Shown here: positions 8,079 through 61,820 of the stretch, piece by piece
Layout of the letters: the number at the start of each line of letters is the position of its first letter
Numbering within the stretch: the first letter of the stretch is position 1
DNA from: Escherichia phage EcS1
Sequence record: NC_055721.1
DNA: 64,000 nucleotides
Strand: one strand, 5' to 3'
Notes under the pieces: model-generated
Seen by the model: only the letters and a program-made list of their open reading frames with translations
Told to the model about the DNA's origin: nothing
The model's database searches: none
Made by a program: the position numbers and the translations under genes

Positions 8079-8707
8079 TATAGTAGCTTAAAGAATTCTT
8101 TAAGTCCTTTAATTACATGAACACTGGTTTCGCCACATTCACATGAAATAGGCACTGCTAATACTACTTGTGGTTTTAATAGCATAGCGGTAATGTCTTT
8201 TAGTGCTTCACTAGAGATAGCAGCATAAAGATCATCTAATTCTAAATCTGAAAGATCATCTACTTTAATGACTGAACCATCAACATCAATGAACTCAATA
8301 CACTTAGCAACCATCATAGCCATATTAGAGTCATCAAAAAGTTTAGGGTATTTGAACTTGACCTTAAAGTTAGTGAATTCCCACACCAGGGGCTCAGAGG
8401 GAGCATCAATTTGTGCATGTGTAAAGTTAAGTGGCACCTCTTGTTCCCGCTTACAGGCACACACCCACGTATGCTCATGATTAACTTCACCTAATGAATG
8501 AGCCCAAAGTTTAATGACAAGCAATTCAGATTCTTGGCGATTAAGGTTATCAGCATCAGTACAGTTTTTAATCAGTTCTACGATGGCTAAGTCTAATGTT
8601 CCCTTAAGCTTTGCATGCATAAGGTCTTTATATTCTCTAAGAGTAAATGCTCGGCAATTAACCACTTTACCTGAGACATGTACTGTAAATTTATATTCAA
8701 AGTTCAT
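8078..8707 (-). CDS. 26: Baseplate hub protein gp26
   Basis: 209 aa at the T4 gene 26 position and size; start codon overlaps gp25 stop. Confidence 0.65.
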   Translation of the reverse strand: MNFEYKFTVHVSGKVVNCRAFTLREYKDLMHAKLKGTLDLAIVELIKNCTDADNLNRQESELLVIKLWAHSLGEVNHEHTWVCACKREQEVPLNFTHAQIDAPSEPLVWEFTNFKVKFKYPKLFDDSNMAMMVAKCIEFIDVDGSVIKVDDLSDLELDDLYAAISSEALKDITAMLLKPQVVLAVPISCECGETSVHVIKGLKEFFKLL

Positions 8708-12924: not shown

Positions 12925-13983
12925 ATGGACATCAAAATTTTAGATGATTTCAAAGATAAGTTTGATTCACTTATTGGCGAAAAAACATCTGCCGGACAAA
13001 GTAAAGTTCAACCAATGAGAAAAACCATTAGCGCTCAATATCCGGCTGAGCGCGCCTCAGGCAATGATGGTATAGACGATTTACGCATTAACGATCTTTA
13101 TAAAAATGGGCTGTTATTTACAGCCTATGATTATAAATCAAGAACAACTCCTGATTTACGTTCAATGCGTTCATCTGTTATTGAAAGTGTTCGTAATAGT
13201 TTTGACCCTGTGAAAGGCACCACTGTTGGTGCCGGAACTCAATTCGATAAGAATCCTATTGCTAATATATTGTTACCACGTTCTAAATCTGACACCGATT
13301 CTATTTCGCATAAGTTCAATGATGTGGGTGAATCACTTATTACTCGTGGTGCAGGGACGGCCACTGGTGTTTTAAGTAATGTCGCTTCTACCACAGTATT
13401 TGGTGCCATTGAATCAATTACTCAAGGTTGGATGTCAGACCATGGTGAACAGATTTATAACACAGCACGTTCAATGTATGCTGGCCCTGATAATAGAAGC
13501 AAAGTATTCACGTGGGACTTAACCCCACGAAATGTTCAAGACTTAATTCAAATCATTAACATCTATGAGACCTTTAACTATTTCTCATATGGTGAAACAG
13601 GCAATAGTAATTTTGCTGCTGATTTGAAAGAACAGATTGACTCATGGTACAAAACCACATTCATTAATAATCTGACACCAACAGGAGCTGACACTTCAAA
13701 TACGATGATGGAACAAGTTACTTCGTTCTTGAGTAATGTCATTGTTGTGAGTAATCCAACAGTTTGGTTTATTCGTAACTTTGGTAAAACATCATCGTTT
13801 GACGGTCGCCCAGATGTGTTTGGGCCTTGTCAAATACAAAGTATAAGATTTGATAAGTCACCAAATGGTAATTTTAATGGATTGGCTATTGCTCCTAACT
13901 TACCAAGTTCATTCGTATTGGAAATCACTTTCCGTGAAATCTTGACATTGAACCGTGGAACTCTTTATAATGGAGCTCTATAA
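12925..13983 (+). CDS. 48: Baseplate tail-tube junction protein gp48
   Basis: 352 aa; synteny 29-48-54. Confidence 0.7.
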   Translation: MDIKILDDFKDKFDSLIGEKTSAGQSKVQPMRKTISAQYPAERASGNDGIDDLRINDLYKNGLLFTAYDYKSRTTPDLRSMRSSVIESVRNSFDPVKGTTVGAGTQFDKNPIANILLPRSKSDTDSISHKFNDVGESLITRGAGTATGVLSNVASTTVFGAIESITQGWMSDHGEQIYNTARSMYAGPDNRSKVFTWDLTPRNVQDLIQIINIYETFNYFSYGETGNSNFAADLKEQIDSWYKTTFINNLTPTGADTSNTMMEQVTSFLSNVIVVSNPTVWFIRNFGKTSSFDGRPDVFGPCQIQSIRFDKSPNGNFNGLAIAPNLPSSFVLEITFREILTLNRGTLYNGAL

Positions 13984-14980: not shown

Positions 14981-15292
14981 TTAGTTACGGAAACCAATGA
15001 AAGCTGGAATTTCAAGGAACAAACTTGTGAATTGCTCTTTACCTTCAAGAGATTTATGGAAGAACTTCACTGATACTGGGAATTCACCTTCAATTTTGCC
15101 ATGAAGGATACCGTCAACAATTGTTTCAGATTGTTCTTCTTTACCAAAGATTTCTTGAGGAATCATTAGAACATCATATTGCTCAGGTGATTTAAAAATC
15201 TGAGATGAGGCTTTTAATGCAAACTCATCAGAAATAGGAGTAACATTTTCAACAACGATTTCAGTTTGGTTAATACGTAAGATAGATTTCAT
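14981..15292 (-). CDS. Hypothetical protein (alt-downstream gene)
   Basis: 103-aa ORF with GAGGA RBS; own early-type promoter upstream. Confidence 0.45.
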   Translation of the reverse strand: MKSILRINQTEIVVENVTPISDEFALKASSQIFKSPEQYDVLMIPQEIFGKEEQSETIVDGILHGKIEGEFPVSVKFFHKSLEGKEQFTSLFLEIPAFIGFRN

Positions 15293-15320: not shown

Positions 15321-15349
15321 ATAGTACCACATCCTTGTGGTGTTGTAAA
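15321..15349 (-). promoter_or_regulatory. Early sigma70-type promoter (-35 TTTACA, 17 bp, -10 TACTAT)
   Basis: Read on minus strand; matches T4 early promoter pattern; immediately upstream of 14981-15292 gene. Confidence 0.5.
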
Positions 15350-17413
15350 CTACCCTTGAATAAAACGTTCTGGGATTTCTTGGATGTCTATTAAAGAAGC
15401 TAAAAGAGCTAGTCCTTCTTTGTTAGGATTAGGCTTTGAAGCCTTCACAAATGAGGTAAAGTTCAATGGTTCAGAAGTGTCCATAGCAACAAGTTCACCA
15501 TTCTCAAACAATGCATCACCATCATACACTATAGTAGATTCTTCAATTTGTTCTGAAGTCATGATTTCAGCTTGAATGAACTTTTGGTTACTATATTGAA
15601 TACCGTCATTATAAGAAGCATCAGTTATAGAATTAATGGATACCATTGTTCCACGAGGTAAAATGATTTCCATTTCAGAAGGCATATTACTCAAATCACC
15701 AGGGAAGATGACGTTAATTTTATGACCACCATCAATAGCCCAACCAACTGTAACTCTGATATCATTTTCAAATTGGCCTGGCATATCTTTTGCTTCTTCG
15801 GAACCTGCATCAATGTTAAGTTCACTACGAACTTCTTCAGGAGCTAAACCAATAGCCGAATTTCCTTTCCAACCACCAAAGATGATAGGAGCTAATGAAG
15901 TAGAAACATAATTACGGAAATAGAATACACGGTTTTTAATCAATGATTCCCAAATAGGCTTACGTATAGTTTGAGAACGCCATAACGTAATATTTTCTGG
16001 GATGCGGTCACCACGTTCAAAAGCAGCATCAATTCCATCAATAGCTTCTAAGACTTCATAGCGATTCATTATATTGCTACTTTGCTCAGACCAACGGCCA
16101 AGCAAATAATCATTAATATCATGATAACCAGAACCAACATATTCTCTGATACCACGTTGCTCTTTTACTGGATATTGTAAAGGAGTACGAGAGCCAGCTA
16201 TACCATTAATATTATCTGATACGTTTTTGGCATAGTTTTGAAGTGATTCTTTGATGAACTTAGTTCTTAACATAGTCCATTCAGCTTGAGCACGTTCTTT
16301 TGACATGCCATAATTATCATCCAATTGTTTATCTATAAAATCTTCTTTAAAATCTTCAGTCATATCCATGCATAATTTAGCATATTCTTGCATACTTTTA
16401 ACAGAAGTTAAAGGAGCTTGACCTATATTTTTAATTAAAACTTCAGTCATTCGATCTGACATTCTAGCAATAGTATCTTCATCAATAAATCTTAAATTTT
16501 TTAATCTATAACCAATACCGTTGACGGCTCTTTCTGCTGATCTTGTTCTAGCAGCCTTAGAAGTTAGCACCAATTCTAATTCGCGTGCTTCTGGGACTAA
16601 ATTAGCAGTTGCCGGCTTATTAAACTTAGAAGCTCTGGCTTCAATTTCATCCCATTTAGGGTCACTAAATGAATCCGTAGCCATTGATTGGGATGCAGCT
16701 ACTTGTCGGCGCGAAACCTTAGTACGATTAATTACTGAACGATCTGAACGATCTTTTTCAATTTCAGCAATAGAACCAGCAAAAGCTTCATCTTTAGTTA
16801 CATTTTCGCCTGTTTTCTTAGAAACATACACATCGCCGACCTTAGATTCAACCTTAGTGTATAGCTCAGAATTGATTTCAGGGATGCCAGAGATATCCTC
16901 TAGACCACGAGACTTACGATAGATAAGAATATATGCGTGCTTTGAAGTAAATGTATAGAGCGCATCCAGGACTTTAAATTGACCACCTGTACGAGCCATT
17001 ACCAGACGTTGCATGATGCGTTGAACAGTTCGTTCTTGGCCTTTCATTTTCTTGGCCGGGAAACGGAACATCACAGCATCCATACGGTTCTTTTTAACTA
17101 CTGAATACACAGTGTCGAAGATAGTATTCAATGCACCTACAGGATCGGAACCTAATCCACCTTTAAGTTCAGCAGGTGTTCCTTTATCACTTAGTGACAT
17201 CAGAATAACGTGTGCGTATTTGTCGCCTTGTTTAATCTGTTTAGTCGCATCACCTTGAGACAAATATGAAACCATACGAGCAACTAGCTTATCATTACCT
17301 GGAACTTTAATAGACCAGAGTTGTGGAACTTTTGCTTTTGGGTTCAAATCAATGACTGGATATCCATTTTCGGATTCGCTGTCAAAAACTTCAACCAATA
17401 AATTATCAGTCAT
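15350..17413 (-). CDS. alt: Alt ADP-ribosyltransferase (packaged, modifies host RNA polymerase)
   Basis: 687 aa (T4 Alt 682); position between 54 and 30; ART-like STS (YVSTSL) and ExE (SEMEI) motifs. Confidence 0.75.
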   Translation of the reverse strand: MTDNLLVEVFDSESENGYPVIDLNPKAKVPQLWSIKVPGNDKLVARMVSYLSQGDATKQIKQGDKYAHVILMSLSDKGTPAELKGGLGSDPVGALNTIFDTVYSVVKKNRMDAVMFRFPAKKMKGQERTVQRIMQRLVMARTGGQFKVLDALYTFTSKHAYILIYRKSRGLEDISGIPEINSELYTKVESKVGDVYVSKKTGENVTKDEAFAGSIAEIEKDRSDRSVINRTKVSRRQVAASQSMATDSFSDPKWDEIEARASKFNKPATANLVPEARELELVLTSKAARTRSAERAVNGIGYRLKNLRFIDEDTIARMSDRMTEVLIKNIGQAPLTSVKSMQEYAKLCMDMTEDFKEDFIDKQLDDNYGMSKERAQAEWTMLRTKFIKESLQNYAKNVSDNINGIAGSRTPLQYPVKEQRGIREYVGSGYHDINDYLLGRWSEQSSNIMNRYEVLEAIDGIDAAFERGDRIPENITLWRSQTIRKPIWESLIKNRVFYFRNYVSTSLAPIIFGGWKGNSAIGLAPEEVRSELNIDAGSEEAKDMPGQFENDIRVTVGWAIDGGHKINVIFPGDLSNMPSEMEIILPRGTMVSINSITDASYNDGIQYSNQKFIQAEIMTSEQIEESTIVYDGDALFENGELVAMDTSEPLNFTSFVKASKPNPNKEGLALLASLIDIQEIPERFIQG

Positions 17414-20585: not shown

Positions 20586-20781
20586 TTGCAGCCTTTAAAA
20601 GGGTTAATTCTGATTCCATGTGAACAGATTCAGTACCATCTGACCATGAAACTTCATATGCTGGTTCAACCTTGTATTTCAGGATTCCAGGTGTATACAT
20701 TATAACCACACCCGGGATAAATCCTGAAATATGCTGAACTGGGGTTCCTAGTTCAAATTTCACTTTATAACCTTGACCCAT
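20557..20781 (-). CDS. Hypothetical small protein
   Basis: ORF only. Confidence 0.3.
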   Translation of the reverse strand: MGQGYKVKFELGTPVQHISGFIPGVVIMYTPGILKYKVEPAYEVSWSDGTESVHMESELTLLKAANDDCYEPAC

Positions 20782-21779: not shown

Positions 21780-21810
21780 TTTGTTATCCAAGTTTGCTGA
21801 TTGAGTGTAC

Positions 21811-21839
21811 ATAATACCACACTCAATCAGCGTTGTAAA
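21811..21839 (-). promoter_or_regulatory. Early promoter (-35 TTTACA, 17 bp, -10 TATTAT) embedded in 13-bp inverted repeat
   Basis: Arms GCTGATTGAGTGT (21796-21808) and ACACTCAATCAGC (21819-21831) flank the -10. Confidence 0.5.
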
Positions 21840-21842
21840 CAC

Positions 21843-22380: not shown

Positions 22381-22746
22381 TTAAGCGATTGTGGTCCAGT
22401 TATCTAAATTGATAACACCTTTATCTTTCATTTGTTGAATCAATGCTTCAGCACGAGTACGACCATTTTCATACCATGTGCAATCTTCATCATCATAAGT
22501 CTCAGAACGAATGCGACCTAAGATGACAGTTTTCAGAACATATTCTTCACCAGTAAACCAGTTAGTCAAACGAATTTTCCAAGAGAAATCATCTGACTGA
22601 CCATCAGGAGTCATGCAATAAACCAGTTCAAATTGCTCCATAGATAATCCCCACTGAAGTTCTTTAACTGATTGAGCTTTGTAGCCATCATGATCTTTGC
22701 ATTTGATGAAAGCGTTCAGATTAATAGTTTTCATTTTATTCTCCAT
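22381..22746 (-). CDS. Hypothetical protein
   Basis: ORF; start at ATG 22746 or 22734 (GGAG RBS); promoter upstream. Confidence 0.4.
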   Translation of the reverse strand: MENKMKTINLNAFIKCKDHDGYKAQSVKELQWGLSMEQFELVYCMTPDGQSDDFSWKIRLTNWFTGEEYVLKTVILGRIRSETYDDEDCTWYENGRTRAEALIQQMKDKGVINLDNWTTIA

Positions 22747-22763
22747 TTGTTGATTGAGTGTAC

Positions 22764-22791
22764 ATCTTAACACAATCCTAGGAGAAGTAAA
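22764..22791 (-). promoter_or_regulatory. Early promoter (-35 TTTACT, 16 bp, -10 TAAGAT)
   Basis: Minus-strand reading; initial transcribed sequence shares TGATTGAGTGTACA with promoter at 21811. Confidence 0.45.
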
Positions 22792-22795
22792 CACC

Positions 22796-30057: not shown

Positions 30058-30410
30058 CTGGTCGCCTCCTGCATATCCTGAGCGAACTTATTGAAGCTGT
30101 CATTGATTTGTTTCTCAACCAATTTAGGCTTCTTAGCTACTGTATCACTTCTTTTTGCGTCTGTAAACATCTTAGCATCAGACGTATCTCTTGCTAGACG
30201 ATTTGCCTTACGTTCATCATCTAAAGCACTAAGACGAGTGAATCCATCTTTCAAATCTGTTATCTGCTTATCTTGTTCTTTAACAGTTTGTTCAACATGA
30301 GTTAAAGATTCTTTTAAGTTATCGATACGGGCTTCTTGAATCTTTACAAAAGCAAAGACACTAAGAACACCTAGTATCAACAACATGTATCCACCATTTA
30401 TAGTAGGCAT
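30054..30410 (-). CDS. Inner-membrane spanin (i-spanin; T4 pseT.2 equivalent)
   Basis: N-terminal TM helix followed by charged coiled-coil-like region; 4-nt overlap with the o-spanin gene. Confidence 0.7.
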   Translation of the reverse strand: MPTINGGYMLLILGVLSVFAFVKIQEARIDNLKESLTHVEQTVKEQDKQITDLKDGFTRLSALDDERKANRLARDTSDAKMFTDAKRSDTVAKKPKLVEKQINDSFNKFAQDMQEATR

Positions 30411-30904
30411 AATTTAACGATTGTCTCAAAGATATCGTCTTGAGTCATATTGTTGATAAGAATATGATGGGGTGAATCAGAAGCTGAAATCTTAAAGCAA
30501 GTTTCAACCATTGAAGCCATTTCGTCAGCAGTTAAACGAGAATGCTGGATTCCAAGACGATGATTACCATAGATTGGGTCAACAATAATGTAACATTTGT
30601 TGCCACTCAGATGGACATTAGGCTGGCTGATGTTAATGAACACTTCAGCGCCATATTTACCCAACTGGTTTTCAAGGAAGCTCTTCATTTCTTCTACTGC
30701 GTCAGGCATAGCATCACGACGAGCTTCAGTGACTTTGTTGTTGTATTCTTTTTGCTTTTTACGTTTAGAAAGATTACGTGCCATGGCAATACGAAGATCG
30801 GTGATGTAACCAATAGTCTTAGAACCTTTAAAGATACTGATTCCATCATGACGATCACCGTATTGAGCCATAACCATTTCATTTGTAATAAGTTGCATAT
30901 TCAT
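30398..30904 (-). CDS. alc: Probable Alc (host transcription shutoff protein) by synteny and size
   Basis: 168 aa from ATG 30904 (T4 Alc 167 aa); between rnlA and spanins as in T4; sequence not verified. Confidence 0.45.
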   Translation of the reverse strand: MNMQLITNEMVMAQYGDRHDGISIFKGSKTIGYITDLRIAMARNLSKRKKQKEYNNKVTEARRDAMPDAVEEMKSFLENQLGKYGAEVFINISQPNVHLSGNKCYIIVDPIYGNHRLGIQHSRLTADEMASMVETCFKISASDSPHHILINNMTQDDIFETIVKLCLL

Positions 30905-30933
30905 TTTAATATCCTCATTTTGTTGGTAGGAGA

Positions 30934-30962
30934 ATCTTATCACAACAAAATGAGGATGTAAA
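30934..30962 (-). promoter_or_regulatory. Early promoter (-35 TTTACA, 17 bp, -10 TAAGAT) inside 13-bp inverted repeat
   Basis: Arms CCTCATTTTGTTG (30913-30925) and CAACAAAATGAGG (30943-30955); the downstream arm contains the alc SD (GAGG). Confidence 0.55.
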
Positions 30963-32135
30963 CTACTCTTGTTCGATTACAATTTCTTTCTTATATTCGT
31001 CTGGAACGAAGAACTTGTGATTCTTGTTAAAAGCTTCGTTAAGCTGTGGAATTAACTTATCTAGGTCTAAACCACCTGTGAACGCTTTCATCAGAATTGG
31101 GAACAGATAAGAACGGTCTGCATCTTTAAAGATTGTTTGAGCAGAGATAGCGAAGTCTTTACGGTCACGACCAGCTAGTTGCTTATAAGTTGTTTGAACT
31201 AAGTCTAATGCATGACGCAAGAACTCTAAATGAATAGTTTCAAACTTATCAATCTTAGTGATAGCCCATTCATCGCCTGCGAACATAGAACGAAGGTCAT
31301 CAGAACCACCAGACACGACAGATTCGAAGAGAGCTTCGTTTTTAGTGATGGAATCTTTAGTACGATGCAAAGCAACATACCAATCAGTTTTGAGCTTAAA
31401 GTTCAAACCGTTTTCCATTACAAAAACATAACCTTCTACACCTTCTTTGGCGCGAATGCCAGGCACAAATCGTTCATCGGCAGGAACATTAAATGCTTCT
31501 ACCAAATGAGGACGAAGCATTGCATCTTTAAACAATTCTTCATATGGAACATATTCACCAGTCTTATTTTCACGAACATTCAGAAGAATCAGGTCACGTT
31601 TACTATAAGCCAGAACGATACGGTTATCTGGTGCAACGTATTCCATGTTACAAGTGAAGCCATCTTTAGTAAGTTGAGTCACACGTTTCAAGAATTTTTC
31701 ATAACGTGGACCATTGATAACTTGTAGTGCTGCATAAGCTTGTTCAGAAGAAATAGAAGCCTTAGACTTCAAGAACAGTTGGTCGTTATCTACAAAGCTA
31801 GAGATTAGAGAACCATCAGCCTTATCCATCATCAATTTGATTTTAGTAAGGTCCAAGTTCATGGTAAATGGAGTTTCATCTAAGTTAAAGAATTTTTCCA
31901 TCGGACGAGCTGCAATACGAGTAGGCTTACCATCGACCATTTCAAACATAATGCCGCGGCACTCTAGAGCGTCAGGCAGAAGCCAATCAGAGTAAGATGC
32001 ATAGTTATAACTGAAGATACGATACTCACCACCAAACGGCGTCTGGTAGTCACGGAAATAGAATTTAGACTGGTCTTTTGGGTCAGTCAATTTCATCAGG
32101 TTTTTGTACAAATCATGTTCTTGTTTAGTAATCAT
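30963..32135 (-). CDS. rnlA: RNA ligase 1 (tRNA repair)
   Basis: Matches T4 gp63 as recalled: YRIFSYNYASYSDWLLPDALECRGIMFEM, RPMEKFFNL, adenylation motif KADGSL. Confidence 0.9.
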   Translation of the reverse strand: MITKQEHDLYKNLMKLTDPKDQSKFYFRDYQTPFGGEYRIFSYNYASYSDWLLPDALECRGIMFEMVDGKPTRIAARPMEKFFNLDETPFTMNLDLTKIKLMMDKADGSLISSFVDNDQLFLKSKASISSEQAYAALQVINGPRYEKFLKRVTQLTKDGFTCNMEYVAPDNRIVLAYSKRDLILLNVRENKTGEYVPYEELFKDAMLRPHLVEAFNVPADERFVPGIRAKEGVEGYVFVMENGLNFKLKTDWYVALHRTKDSITKNEALFESVVSGGSDDLRSMFAGDEWAITKIDKFETIHLEFLRHALDLVQTTYKQLAGRDRKDFAISAQTIFKDADRSYLFPILMKAFTGGLDLDKLIPQLNEAFNKNHKFFVPDEYKKEIVIEQE

Positions 32136-32545
32136 TTCTTAACCTTGTGCTGGACATTCCAGGGTGGATTGAATAGTTTAATGAACATCGGTTCTTCAAG
32201 GTCCATAGTGGCAACGGACATTGTGCCTAATTCGTTTGTCATGCTCAAATTAAAACATTGACGTGCGTAGAAGTCTACTTTCTTGTTATCCATCAAAGCT
32301 TCATGAATAAACACTGATTTAGTAGAATCACTAGTTGGATTGCTTCGATTTATAGCTGTACGATAATAATTGATTCGTTTACGTAAGTTTTTTGTCTTAC
32401 CAATATACACTAATTCATCATCTACAGCAATTGCATAGATTACGTTTGATTTATTTGGAACTGAAAGTAGTTCAATTTCTCCATTATTATTCATTTCGAG
32501 TGAAGCATATTTTATAAAAGAAAATTCATCTGCGAATGGTTTCAT
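32132..32545 (-). CDS. denA: Endonuclease II
   Basis: Near-colinear with T4 DenA as recalled (VIYAIA..DELVYIGKTKNLRKRINYYRTAINR, YARQCFNLSMTNELGT, FIKLFNPPWN). Confidence 0.85.
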   Translation of the reverse strand: MKPFADEFSFIKYASLEMNNNGEIELLSVPNKSNVIYAIAVDDELVYIGKTKNLRKRINYYRTAINRSNPTSDSTKSVFIHEALMDNKKVDFYARQCFNLSMTNELGTMSVATMDLEEPMFIKLFNPPWNVQHKVKK

Positions 32546-32554
32546 TACGATAAA

Positions 32555-32568
32555 GGGGCCGAAGCCCC
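32555..32568 (-). promoter_or_regulatory. Intercistronic UUCG-tetraloop hairpin (GGGGC-UUCG-GCCCC) between nrdB and denA
   Basis: Plus GGGGCCGAAGCCCC. Confidence 0.55.
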
Positions 32569-32573
32569 ATCCT

Positions 32574-33752
32574 TTAGAGATATTTACGGAAGTCGGTTAG
32601 AACGCTCTCGTCTACGTCGTTATCAATCTGTGCTACAAGATAAGAAGACAAATCGACTTCTTGTGGAGCAGACTGAACCATATCACTATTTAAGTATTCG
32701 CGAATCCAAGATAATGGATGACGTACAGGAGCATCCTTAATTGGACAAGGGAGTCCACAAGAATTCATACGTGATACTGTGAGGTAGTCAATAAAGTCGC
32801 TCAGGATTTTAACGTTTAACCCAGGCATACCACCATTACGGAACAAGTGGACGGCCCACTCTTTTTCCTGGCGGTTGACTTCCATGAAAATATCTACTGC
32901 TTCTTGTTCACACTCTTTAGCAATTTCTACCCATTCATCACCGTCAGTACCCATCTGCCATTGACGAATAATGAATTGGGTCCCTTTAAGGTGAAGCTGT
33001 TCATCACGGGCAATGAACTTCATAATCTTACTGTTGCCTTCCATGATTTCCATATTCTTATGGAAGTTGAAAGTACAAGCGAAAGATACATAAAAACGTA
33101 TTGCTTCAAGGGCATTGATAACATGCATGCACAAATAGAGCGCTTTCATCAAGTTGTGTTTAGCAATTTCTTCAGATTGTTCAGCAACACAGTATGAATC
33201 ATAATCGTTACCTTGGACTTTATACCACTTTGTTTCTTCTTTAGCATTTTCCCACAAGCGGGTTTTAGTCAGAACATCATCATAATAAACACCAATAGAT
33301 TCTGCACGTTTCATGATGGCTTCATCAAGAACGATTTCATCAAAAATCTTAGTTGGATCATTAAACAGGTTACGCATTATGTGTGTATATGAACGAGAGT
33401 GAATTGTTTCACTGAACGTCCAGGTCTGGTTCCAAGTATCAAGACTTGGGTCAGAAATCAGAGCAGATAATACTGCTGCTGGTGCACGACCTTGGATGGT
33501 ATCAAGCAATGATTGATACTTCAGGTTGTTGATGAATATTTCTTTTTGGTGTTCTGGGAGCTTTTCATATTGAGCACGGTCCATCATCAGGTTAACTTCT
33601 TCAGGCCGCCAAAAAAACGATAACTGCTTTTCAATTAGGTCTTCAAATGTTTTATGATGCTGGATGTCATAACGGGCAATACTTAGTCCTGAACCCAAGA
33701 ACATTGGTTCATTCAAGACATCTACTTGTTCTTTATTAAAAACTGTACTCAT
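32574..33752 (-). CDS. nrdB: Ribonucleotide reductase small subunit (class Ia), uninterrupted
   Basis: 392 aa (T4 NrdB 388); ferritin-like composition; adjacent to nrdA; no intron gap. Confidence 0.85.
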   Translation of the reverse strand: MSTVFNKEQVDVLNEPMFLGSGLSIARYDIQHHKTFEDLIEKQLSFFWRPEEVNLMMDRAQYEKLPEHQKEIFINNLKYQSLLDTIQGRAPAAVLSALISDPSLDTWNQTWTFSETIHSRSYTHIMRNLFNDPTKIFDEIVLDEAIMKRAESIGVYYDDVLTKTRLWENAKEETKWYKVQGNDYDSYCVAEQSEEIAKHNLMKALYLCMHVINALEAIRFYVSFACTFNFHKNMEIMEGNSKIMKFIARDEQLHLKGTQFIIRQWQMGTDGDEWVEIAKECEQEAVDIFMEVNRQEKEWAVHLFRNGGMPGLNVKILSDFIDYLTVSRMNSCGLPCPIKDAPVRHPLSWIREYLNSDMVQSAPQEVDLSSYLVAQIDNDVDESVLTDFRKYL

Positions 33753-33937
33753 AAGGTGTAAGTCCTGTTTAGCATTTCAGGTGTCATTATTTGGGCTTTG
33801 CGTTCTTGTTCCATCTTTTCAGACAATTTAGCAAACGAGCGTTTTAATCGTTTAGTATATTCAGCTTTAAATTCAGGGTCTTTTAAAAGAAGATGATATG
33901 CTTCAATATCATAGTCAATCATTTTTAACTTCCTCAT
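33749..33937 (-). CDS. Hypothetical small protein between nrdA and nrdB
   Basis: 62-aa ORF. Confidence 0.35.
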   Translation of the reverse strand: MRKLKMIDYDIEAYHLLLKDPEFKAEYTKRLKRSFAKLSEKMEQERKAQIMTPEMLNRTYTL

Positions 33938-39868: not shown

Positions 39869-40143
39869 TTTGTTTTCTTAGCAATTTTCCAGGCAGCTTT
39901 GAAAGCTTCGACTTCTTCAATTTCAATCCAAAAACCAGAACCAAAGCCATCGTCATAACAAGGACAGCCGTCGCAATAGTCTTCCCAAGTAAGATCACGA
40001 CCGCCAAGAGAAGAACCAGTTTCCATTGCACGCAGACGAATTTCAGCAGCTTCAATAGCTTCAGGGTCGTTACCTTCAATAGTGAAGTACCATTTTCCAC
40101 GATATTCATTACCTAAGTTGATTGAGTTACGTTTAAGTTTCAT
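39865..40143 (-). CDS. Hypothetical small protein
   Basis: Start at ATG 40143 with GGAG RBS downstream of promoter 40170-40198. Confidence 0.4.
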   Translation of the reverse strand: MKLKRNSINLGNEYRGKWYFTIEGNDPEAIEAAEIRLRAMETGSSLGGRDLTWEDYCDGCPCYDDGFGSGFWIEIEEVEAFKAAWKIAKKTK

Positions 40144-40169
40144 TTTATTCTCCTTGTTGGTGTAGAAGC

Positions 40170-40198
40170 ATAATACCATACCTCTACACCGTTGTACA
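40170..40198 (-). promoter_or_regulatory. Early-type promoter (-10 TATTAT, -35-like TGTACA) flanked by inverted repeat GGTGTAG/CTACACC
   Basis: Cassette nearly identical over ~45 bp to the one at 58003-58042. Confidence 0.45.
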
Positions 40199-40537
40199 CT
40201 ACTTATTGAAAGTCTTTTTGATCAATGCAATCATTTCTTCTGCATTGCCTTCGTAGACAGTCAAAGTTATCGACTCATCTTTTATTTTTTCAAAGTATTT
40301 GAATTCACCTTGTGCTAGTTCAAAGTAAGGGACAAAACCACCTGAACCTGCAACTTGCCCATTGGCAAACTCGATTTCATCTACATAAAGGTCATAATCA
40401 CATTTACTAACATTTCGAACAGTGAACCAACCACCATTCTTATCGATCAAACGAACCATTTCATTGTTACAATGAGCATTTTCCATGAAAGCTGAGGTGC
40501 ACTCTTCTTTCAAGCGATATTTTTTATCAACTTGCAT
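40199..40537 (-). CDS. Hypothetical protein
   Basis: 112-aa ORF. Confidence 0.4.
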   Translation of the reverse strand: MQVDKKYRLKEECTSAFMENAHCNNEMVRLIDKNGGWFTVRNVSKCDYDLYVDEIEFANGQVAGSGGFVPYFELAQGEFKYFEKIKDESITLTVYEGNAEEMIALIKKTFNK

Positions 40538-40539
40538 TT

Positions 40540-40770
40540 TTATTCACCTGATTCAACAATTGTATCAAAAAGTTCTTCAATCATTTCTGGGTACATGCCA
40601 ACACAGTACTCACGGTTTAGATAAAGATTGATAGTACGACGGTCACCTTCAATAGTGATTTCCATACTGTAACCATTAGTAACACATTCAACTTCTTTAA
40701 GATTGTACTTATCAAGACAAGTCTCTTTGAAATAAGCATAATCGTAGATATCAATAGTTACTTTAGCCAT
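40540..40770 (-). CDS. Hypothetical small protein
   Basis: 76-aa ORF with GAGGAAAAC RBS; early promoter upstream. Confidence 0.4.
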   Translation of the reverse strand: MAKVTIDIYDYAYFKETCLDKYNLKEVECVTNGYSMEITIEGDRRTINLYLNREYCVGMYPEMIEELFDTIVESGE

Positions 40771-40800
40771 TTTGTTTTCCTCACTTGTTTGTAGGAAAAC

Positions 40801-40829
40801 ATCTTACCACATCTAAATGAGGTTGTAAA
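40801..40829 (-). promoter_or_regulatory. Early promoter (-35 TTTACA, 17 bp, -10 TAAGAT)
   Basis: Immediately downstream of gene 32 terminator. Confidence 0.5.
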
Positions 40830-40842
40830 CAGATACAAAAAT

Positions 40843-58044: not shown

Positions 58045-58698
58045 CTAAAGTGAAAAAGATTTGCAAAGTTTCCACTGAATTTCTGCATAAGCATATTTGT
58101 AGCCTAAATCCATCATTTCACTGATGAAGTAAGACTTGTTATCACGATTCAATGTATAAAGTCCTACAGCCAATTTAGTAGGCTTAGCAACACGTTTCAC
58201 TTCACCGCCAAAGTTAGGTGAAGAAGGCTTTTGAGAACGTGGTAGTTCTTGGTTAGTGAAAGCAGCTACATCGAATTCTGATTCTTGACGAGTATGGCCA
58301 GCATTAATCATCCAAGATTCATTGAACCCAAAACGACCTTTTATTGGCAGTTTAGCACGAGCATGTTTGTCACCAAGCTCAAGAGCTTTAGCACGCCATA
58401 CTTTATCGTGTCCATGACCTTCAGTTAATGCATGAGCTAGTTCATGAAGAATAATTTCTTCAACACATTCAGCTGGGATAGCAAAGAACCAATGCGCTTG
58501 AAAAGCAATTAGCTTTTTGCGATAGCTGCAATGAGCAATTTCATGTTTACGAGTAGAAGAAACTATTTTGAAGTCCCATCCATCTAAACCGTGTTGCTTA
58601 CACTTGGCTTCAAAGAAACCTTTAGCTGAATCCACTGAGTGGAATAAAACTCCATTGTGATAAAAAGCTTTGGAAGCGATACGTTCGATAAGATTCAT
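58045..58698 (-). CDS. Putative zinc metallopeptidase-like protein (HExxH motif; SprT/Wss1-like)
   Basis: ILHELAHALTEGHGHD contains HExxH plus downstream His; family assignment tentative. Confidence 0.4.
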   Translation of the reverse strand: MNLIERIASKAFYHNGVLFHSVDSAKGFFEAKCKQHGLDGWDFKIVSSTRKHEIAHCSYRKKLIAFQAHWFFAIPAECVEEIILHELAHALTEGHGHDKVWRAKALELGDKHARAKLPIKGRFGFNESWMINAGHTRQESEFDVAAFTNQELPRSQKPSSPNFGGEVKRVAKPTKLAVGLYTLNRDNKSYFISEMMDLGYKYAYAEIQWKLCKSFSL

Positions 58699-58726
58699 TT
58701 TGTTTCTCCATGTTGGTAGGATTGCT

Positions 58727-58754
58727 ATCTTATCATGTCTAGAGCAAAAGTAAA
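58727..58754 (-). promoter_or_regulatory. Early promoter (-35 TTTACT, 16 bp, -10 TAAGAT)
   Basis: Upstream of ATG 58698 (GGAG RBS). Confidence 0.45.
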
Positions 58755-58869
58755 CAGCCAATAAAAATATTTTTGGATGCGTAGGACAACGCCAGGGAGA
58801 TTTAATTTGAGAGGATGTAGAAACATAAAAGGGGCCCCTTTCGGAGTCCCTGCGCGTATCTGGCTAACC

Positions 58870-61641: not shown

Positions 61642-61791
61642 ATTTTCCTCAGAAATAGTAATTAAAAGTTATCCAGAATAAATCCCAACACAACACTGTA
61701 ACAGCAGTTAAAGATAGTGCTAAGCAAACTAAGATGTTTCGAAGCCAAATCTTTAAAGTTTTCATAAGTACTCCCATGTTTGTGTAGGAGT

Positions 61792-61820
61792 ACTATACCA
61801 TGTTAATCAGACGTTGTAAA
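61792..61820 (-). promoter_or_regulatory. Early promoter (-35 TTTACA, 17 bp, -10 TATAGT) overlapping 3' end of denB-like gene
   Basis: Cassette similar to motA promoter; drives tiny TM ORF at ~61649-61765. Confidence 0.45.

Follow-up and report, generated by a model that had tools for sequence, protein, structure and literature searches.

A promoter-embedded hairpin predicted to mask the Shine-Dalgarno sequence of alc on read-through transcripts of Escherichia phage EcS1 and other T4-like phages

Genes and Sequence Elements Between rnlA and alc

The window analyzed here is a stretch of 64,000 nucleotides from the genome of Escherichia phage EcS1 (NC_055721.1), and all coordinates are counted from its first nucleotide. 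The phage is T4-like; the window is identical to the IMG/VR contig UViG_2974737508, and among named phages it is closest to Serratia phage X20 (Winklervirus), with approximately 75% nucleotide identity, and to Erwinia phage Cronus. The genes of interest lie on the minus strand in the order nrdB (33752-32574), denA (32545-32132), rnlA (30963-32135, RNA ligase 1 / tail-fibre attachment, Pfam domains T4_Rnl1_C and RNA_lig_T4_1), alc (30398-30904, 168 aa, start codon ATG at 30904-30902), and two spanin genes, the first of which, encoding the i-spanin (30410-30054), overlaps the 3' end of alc.

The gene called alc-like in the initial annotation of this region encodes a true Alc homologue (Pfam ALC, PF17527, 168 bits with the cut-off at 25, E = 1.6e-49). 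It is 57% identical to T4 Alc over the full length, the synteny is also equal to that of T4, and tblastn matches it to 1131 phage records that carry the annotation inhibitor of host transcription. The order rnlA–alc–spanins is kept at nearly all loci examined. In T4, Alc is the factor that stops host transcription on DNA containing cytosine, and early in infection, within the first minutes, both its amount and its timing are important.

Read along the minus strand, the gap between the two genes has the structure TAG(rnlA stop)–TTTACA–TCCTCATTTTGTTGTGA–TAAGAT–TCTCCTAC–CAACAAAATGAGGAT–ATTAAA–ATG. The rnlA stop codon (TAG, 30965-30963) directly adjoins the –35 hexamer TTTACA (30957-30962, minus strand), which together with G30963 makes up GTTTACA, the form seen in T4 early promoters. 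Both the –35 hexamer and the –10 hexamer TAAGAT within the 17-nt spacer of the repeat, as described initially, were found by the promoter scan, which also identified the –10 element as an extended one (TG-A-TAAGAT, 30934-30942, minus strand, with TG at 30942-30941 and TAAGAT at 30939-30934) and set its distance from the –35 hexamer at 17 nt. From the promoter geometry, the transcription start region is predicted at 30925-30929 (minus strand), and the predicted +1 nucleotide is A30927, the seventh past the –10 hexamer, situated within a conserved TCCTAC motif.

This promoter is embedded in an inverted repeat. The initial annotation had reported a perfect repeat of 13 bp, which is exact and understates the element: the perfect match reaches 15 bp (30911-30925 / 30943-30957) with a loop of 17 nt (30926-30942), and it is the longest perfect inverted repeat of the 64-kb window at loops of up to 60 nt. 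The 5' arm of the hairpin, AUCCUCAUUUUGUUG (30943-30957, minus strand), touches the –35 hexamer, lies within the promoter spacer and carries the anti-SD (Shine-Dalgarno) tetranucleotide CCUC, while the extended –10 element is within the loop. The 3' arm, CAACAAAAUGAGGAU (30911-30925, minus strand), contains the SD sequence GAGG, which had been assigned to the downstream arm from the outset and which we locate at 30916-30913, 8 nt ahead of the alc start codon. In the predicted fold of the leader, the 5'-arm segment AUUUUGUUG pairs in the stem with its 3'-arm partner CAACAAAAU. As the 5' arm is situated in the promoter spacer, it should be missing from transcripts started at the embedded promoter, given the predicted start.

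As the rnlA stop codon abuts the –35 hexamer, rnlA transcripts would enter the hairpin element directly. The terminator scan called no intrinsic terminator between rnlA and alc; as, in addition, the rnlA stop codon is followed at once by the –35 hexamer, read-through into alc is to be expected. No T4 late promoter (TATAAATA) is present on the minus strand within 30900-33800. No Rfam family matches the alc leader, the only hit being RNA-OUT on the opposite strand at the chance level (21.7 bits against the gathering threshold of 41, E = 0.86).

Predicted Folding of Read-Through and Promoter-Proximal Leaders

As sense-strand RNA, the sequence folds into the stem in the MFE and centroid structures alike, in the 111-nt context (z = –3.15) as well as in the 251-nt context, and the local energy of the hairpin is approximately –19.5 kcal/mol. 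On the contrary, the RNA beginning at the predicted start A30927 has an MFE of just –2.4 kcal/mol and is less stable than its shuffles. Folding of the read-through and the promoter-proximal leaders had been proposed as a check on the initial interpretation, and the outcome agrees with it: in the partition function, the probability that the alc SD is unpaired, P(unpaired SD), equals 0.000 on the read-through RNA, where it is buried, and 0.38 on the proximal transcript, where it is open. In the conserved class of leaders described below, the same values are 0.000–0.008 for read-through RNA vs. 0.3–0.75 for promoter-proximal RNA.

Of the features of hairpins that mask ribosome-binding sites (RBS), one is seen in the predicted folds of alc: the SD is within a stable helix, the 15-bp stem, on the longer transcript. 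As to a second, the promoter consensus and its conservation put the predicted +1 at approximately 30927, downstream of the 5' arm, so that the arm would probably be absent from the shorter transcript. The third feature, an internal late promoter, is absent from alc.

Conservation and Co-variation of alc Leaders

The same layout, comprising GTTTACA, an anti-SD arm, the –10 element, an SD arm and ATG, is common to T4 and at least eight other T4-like genera. It is found in X20 and Gravdalen (Winklervirus), Cronus (Roskildevirus), CkP1 and myPSH1140 (Karamvirus), STP4-a (Gelderlandvirus), KLB2 (Jiaodavirus), EcoM_005 (Dhakavirus), phiP4-3 (Bragavirus), and, in a weaker form, in P545 (Marfavirus). 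The T4 alc leader (AF158101, 136276-136339) reads GTTTACA–AGTCCCTCGTGTTGTGT–TATAGT–...–ATAACATGAGGACT–TTATG, the spacer between its –35 and –10 elements being AGTCCCTCGTG. A scan of IMG/VR enlarged the set to 44 distinct alc upstream sequences, and the layout was found in these contigs, too.

The promoter is conserved in the alc upstream regions examined. GTTTACA is invariant in all 27 aligned masked-SD alc leaders and is present in 40 of 45 distinct alc upstream sequences, the others having GTGTACA, GTTTACT or CTTGACA; the –10 element is placed 16–18 nt downstream of the –35. The distance from the –35 to ATG is 56–60 nt in the masked-SD class and 57–66 nt in other alc sequences. The whole SD core is paired with an arm starting 0–3 nt past the –35 in approximately 29 of the 44 distinct sequences. 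A strong hairpin spanning the –10 element and ending short of the SD is seen in seven more (L034, L050, L040, L061, L062, Berthold and L064, where Berthold, L061 and L062 are Acinetobacter phage sequences and the hairpin of L064 resembles a true terminator), and in the remaining eight the hairpin is absent or weak.

The arms vary between clades with complementarity retained (CCUCAUUUUGUUG, UCUCCGUUUUUG, UCUCCAUUUGGUUG, AACCUCUCAUUUUUA, AUCCUCAUCAG, UCUCCUCAG). The structural evidence was obtained from an alignment-free comparison of self and cross-phage duplexes and from an in-register subset of 11 sequences. These were used instead of RNAalifold, which returned no structure on the MAFFT alignment of the 27 alc leaders, since the register of the 3' arms differs from clade to clade. 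The covariance-model alignment was also excluded from the pair counts, as antisense hits and promoters of genes other than alc had entered it and distant clades had been forced to fit the seed sequence. The energy of the duplex between the spacer and the leader averages –16.0 kcal/mol within a phage vs. –9.3 kcal/mol between phages, and cross-phage values equal self values only among close relatives. In the 11-sequence alignment, 92.7% of cells pair in register, compared to 30–51% when the partners are slid, and both sides have changed in four pairs, including the change of the SD from GAGG to GGAG accompanied by the change of CCUC to CUCC. In the fixed register of the same alignment, G.U cells outnumber A.C cells 10 to 3, which points to sense-strand RNA and not to DNA.

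These data bear on the reading of the repeat as a DNA palindrome, either an operator of a dimeric protein or a cruciform, or else as a chance repeat. The repeat does overlap the promoter, a frequent location of operators. However, an operator would conserve its sequence, whereas the arms vary by genus and keep complementarity; G.U is tolerated far above A.C, indicating sense-strand RNA; and extrusion of a cruciform is disfavoured by a 17-nt loop. As for chance, seven perfect 13-mer inverted repeats are observed at four sites of the window, compared to 0.16 expected per window in first-order Markov simulations, and the layout recurs in at least nine genera. Hence we regard a DNA-level or accidental origin of the repeat as barely credible.

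At six loci (L034, L050, L040, L014, L061 and L062) strong, perfect hairpins of 11–17 bp begin just past the –35, enclose the –10 element and end 12–21 nt before ATG, leaving the SD free, with no U-tract following. Such SD-free hairpins spanning the –10 element at some alc loci imply that the link between hairpin and promoter is broader than SD masking. They would also fit an SD-independent role of the hairpin in RNA processing or stability, where it would shield the 3' end of the rnlA mRNA from exonucleases, or where a cleavage would separate the messages; the position of a stable stem immediately past the rnlA stop codon suits this role as well. Still, a 3' protector has no reason to maintain the span from the –35 to the SD in about ten independent families of arm sequences, and RNase III typically acts on longer substrates than a stem of 15 bp closed by a loop of 17 nt, so that a processing element appears improbable.

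Three further loci (L035, L037 and L059) were considered as another masking geometry, and this was rejected: the promoter cassette is followed there by a truncated duplicate of alc, so these loci are no clean data points. In L035 (598-1345; the same is seen in L037 and L059) the duplicate of the alc N-terminus comes after the cassette, its ORF ending at 831, and the full-length alc begins at 843 without a GTTTACA promoter of its own, which looks like a trace of recombination at the cassette. Rfam revealed no intron there.

Comparison With Known RBS-Masking Hairpins and the Proposed Mechanism

Hairpins masking ribosome-binding sites have been reviewed for genes e, soc, 49 and I-TevI, plus I-TevII, I-TevIII, mobE of Aeh1 and segB of T4 (Uzan and Miller, 2010; PMC3014915). 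In this class, the SD and/or AUG is within a helix on the RNA transcribed from an upstream promoter, and a promoter in or near the 5' arm yields a shorter RNA, devoid of this arm, that is translated (PMC3014915). The name alc has zero occurrences in this review. Among the searchable papers, none links the alc leader to a hairpin, and an earlier mention in older T4 papers of subscription journals is possible.

The alc leader is like e, soc, 49 and I-TevI in that the SD is within a predicted helix on the long RNA; if the predicted start holds, the transcript of the internal promoter would also omit the 5' arm. Unlike these genes, which have the late promoter TATAAATA and whose translation is therefore delayed until late infection, alc has an internal early promoter of the sigma-70 type, GTTTACA–17–TGaTAAGAT. 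The logic is thus predicted to be reversed compared to the late-promoter class, translation of alc being confined to the period when the early promoter fires, or insulated from read-through. The description given initially, that of the known T4 mechanism with an early-type promoter, is accurate, as the published list centres on late promoters and omits alc. As a positive control we used the T4 I-TevII leader CCTCGTATAAATATGAATACGAGG, whose anatomy is that of the alc leader, except that the loop holds a late promoter. Its stem, CCTCG–TATAAATA–...CGAGG, comprises 8 bp, and the alc stem is more stable than this known functional example. The hairpin of alc corresponds to those of T4 e, soc, 49 and I-TevI, with an early promoter in place of the late one.

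Taken together, the anatomy, thermodynamics and phylogenetic co-variation support the masking interpretation offered in the initial annotation. We propose, with a probability of about 0.6, that the hairpin acts as a cis-acting RNA switch that reads the origin of the transcript and masks the alc SD on read-through RNA. Transcripts started upstream and passing through rnlA, whose existence and amount, as well as the size of the translational effect, we infer, would hold both arms and form the hairpin, so that the alc SD would be buried and alc poorly translated. RNA polymerase acting at the embedded early promoter of the sigma-70 type would begin at approximately 30927, the predicted start, past the 5' arm, leaving the leader open to the ribosome. 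Synthesis of Alc would then be tied to its own immediate-early promoter and insulated from nrdB–denA–rnlA read-through. Alc production would probably be restricted to the time when early promoters fire, independently of the nrdB–denA–rnlA transcripts, and the selective reason may be a short early pulse of Alc.

A different relation between the two genes would be translational coupling, in which the stem keeps alc shut until it is melted by a ribosome that completes rnlA, so that the output of alc on long transcripts is proportional to that of rnlA. In favour of coupling, the stop codon TAG and GTTTACA overlap at the locus of the window, in X20, in Gravdalen and in several others, and the arm follows 5–6 nt downstream. 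However, the footprint of a terminating ribosome would reach just the first 2–4 of the 15 pairs; moreover, the distance between the stop codon and the arm is not constant, as it is approximately 10 nt in T4 but exceeds 20 nt in Cronus, and the T4 Alc and RnlA proteins belong to different timing classes. We therefore see coupling as a highly improbable basis of alc regulation. One point against masking is the short distance in the window, 5 nt, between the rnlA stop codon and the 5' arm: a terminating rnlA ribosome could open the bottom 2–4 bp and allow for some coupled initiation.

In time-resolved T4 omics data (PMC9697503, supplement), the alc and rnlA RNAs are both classified as 'early', but at the protein level Alc falls into the early class and RnlA into the late one. 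This split in protein timing is consistent with the uncoupled translation expected under SD masking. If masking operates as proposed, adjacent genes on one read-through RNA (rnlA, alc and the spanin genes) could acquire different protein timing, and the paradigm of a late promoter within a masking hairpin would extend to early promoters with the temporal logic reversed. The presence of the element in T4 makes it open to existing T4 genetics.

Terminators, Attenuation and PeSL Cassettes

A stable hairpin right after a stop codon is also what an intrinsic terminator would look like. Unlike intrinsic terminators, the alc stem is not G+C-rich (G-C pairs make up 6 of the 16 predicted pairs, the stem being AU-rich), its loop is 17 nt long, and it has no U-tract: there are three U in the 8 nt past the stem of the window, and zero to four of eight across the masked-SD class. 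An intrinsic terminator as the main reading was rejected, given the lack of a U-tract and of a terminator call. For comparison, a terminator present in the window has the form GGGGCTTCGGCCCC–TTTAT (32568-32555). This G+C-rich hairpin, called as a terminator after nrdB (32545-32580, minus strand), is situated between AAGGA and the ATG codon of denA. The latter gene lacks an SD at the normal spacing, and the hairpin GGGGCTTCGGCCCC could bring AAGGA nearer to ATG, as in the split ribosome sites of T4 genes 38/25.

A closer relative of the alc element is the promoter-early stem-loop (PeSL), a cassette of T4-type phages composed of an early promoter, a stem-loop, an SD and ATG (Arbiol et al., 2010; Comeau et al., 2014). 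The PeSL promoter of T4 and PST has the consensus TTTACW–N17–TAYWAT, and the intergenic cassette includes the stop codon of the upstream gene; in all five subclasses the stem is upstream of the start site. The stems have been interpreted as terminators or attenuators and as recombination sites, one of them lowered lacZ expression like a strong terminator, and translation was not discussed (Arbiol et al., 2010; Comeau et al., 2014). The alc element resembles these cassettes in its sigma-70-like early promoter with a spacing of approximately 17 nt and SD and ATG at the 3' end, in a stable stem overlapping the promoter spacer and enclosing the –10 element, and in the recurrence of sequence-related copies in the genome. 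It differs from the five PeSL subclasses in that the 3' arm of alc is past the predicted start, in the leader, and includes the SD. The location differs as well, as the alc locus is syntenic (rnlA–alc–spanins), unlike PeSLs in hyperplastic ORFan regions.

The stem could be an attenuator or insulator of the PeSL type, stopping or reducing the polymerase arriving from rnlA, with transcription restarted at the embedded promoter and the cover of the SD incidental. The published cassettes share the anatomy, including the one with a terminator-like effect on lacZ; related cassettes are found elsewhere in the window with the covariance model built from alc loci; and hairpins that span the –10 element but leave the SD uncovered occur at some alc loci as well as at the window promoters 21839, 58042 and 40198. 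On the other hand, the stem is not followed by a U-tract (zero to four U in the next 8 nt) and the terminator scan is silent, the stem is AU-rich, unlike the tested G(n)/C(n) PeSL stems, and the 3' arm of alc belongs to the leader that is predicted to be transcribed and changes in step with the SD as the sequence varies. Attenuation with incidental cover of the SD thus seems rather unlikely, while attenuation as such and SD masking are compatible, and both may hold. If SD masking is true, the widespread PeSL stems gain a testable translational role.

Other Promoters of the Window and of T4

The covariance model built from alc loci has hits at 40768-40830 (44 bits), 21785-21840, 22732-22792, 40141-40199 and 58696-58755. 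An anti-SD arm before the predicted start is found at the window –35 elements 61820, 40829 and 22791 and, weakly, at 15349 and 57667. Complementarity between the segments before and after the start is promoter-specific, with the permutation p = 0.001 for the window and p = 0.007 for 63 kb of T4, where alc, motB.2 and modB stand out. In an annotation-free comparison over 70 window genes, promoter-proximal genes show no significant excess of masked SDs (8 vs. 62 genes, p = 0.086). SD masking as a general rule of early promoters is not established; alc itself is, judging by the sequence and the predicted folds, a clear, conserved case of early-promoter SD masking.

A tentative generalization, which we hold possible and no likelier than that, is that PeSL stems may be sensors of transcript origin, the arm before the start pairing with the leader or the SD, and not primarily terminators or recombination sites. 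Translation of immediate-early genes (alc; motB.2 and modB of T4; the window genes at 22734, 40770 and 61760) would then need initiation at their own promoters. If true, this would provide a general post-transcriptional basis for the distinction between immediate-early and delayed-early genes.

The site near alt, cited in the initial annotation as a 5-bp version of the repeat, is weak. The 687-aa ORF at 15350-17413 (minus strand) encodes an Alt-like ADP-ribosyltransferase (PF03496), and its stop codon TAG overlaps the G of the next GTTTACA, as in rnlA; the following gene (14981-15292, minus strand) encodes a DUF5498 protein. The 5-bp repeat CCTCA/TGAGG does exist downstream of the Alt-like gene (15316-15312 / 15305-15301). 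As a second masking site it is marginal, as the predicted start is inside the 5' arm and P(unpaired SD) is 0.20.

The hit of the model at 40768-40830 (minus strand) is a paralogous cassette approximately 75% identical to that of alc, GTTTACAACCTCATTTAGATGTGGTAAGAT...AAGTGAGGAAAAC...ATG, ahead of a 76-aa gene; it has two alternative anti-SD arms, CCTCATTT and GTTTTCCT. At 22732-22792 (minus strand), TTCTCC directly past the –35 pairs with GGAGAA, and the SD of the gene at 22734 is predicted to be almost always paired (P(unpaired SD) = 0.001). The early promoter at 61760-61820 (minus strand) has the anti-SD pairing AGTACTCC/GGGAGTACT, overlapping the region from –10 to +1 (predicted start). A second perfect 13-bp repeat, GCTGATTGAGTGT/ACACTCAATCAGC (21796-21808 / 21819-21831, minus strand), is situated within 21785-21840; it starts 3 nt past the –35 of GTTTACA–17–TATTAT, encloses the –10 element and stops short of the weak SD that precedes the next gene, that is, the hairpin is promoter-embedded without SD masking. 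The promoters 58042 and 40198 (minus strand) share a near-identical cassette of approximately 45 nt, (A/G)TGTACAACGGTGTAG..ATGGTATTATGCTTCTACACCAAC, whose stem GGTGTAG/CTACACC spans the –10 element; these look like repeated PeSL-type cassettes.

Two sequence features recur among these promoters. The motif TCCTAC(A/C)(A/C)AAC, probably the start-site region, comes right after the –10 element at 61820, 58754, 57667, 40829 and 30962 (minus strand). TAAGAT with an upstream TG is a recurrent form of the –10 element, TAAGAT being present at three other early-type promoters of the window.

In T4 (AF158101), the arms before the start at the motB.2 (–35 at 8217) and modB (–35 at 13185) promoters are complementary to the SD regions, with duplex energies of –17.2 and –15.3 kcal/mol, respectively. 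The dmd promoter of the same genome (–35 at 20611) has a 10-bp perfect repeat, GACAAGACTA/TAGTCTTGTC, across the –10 element.
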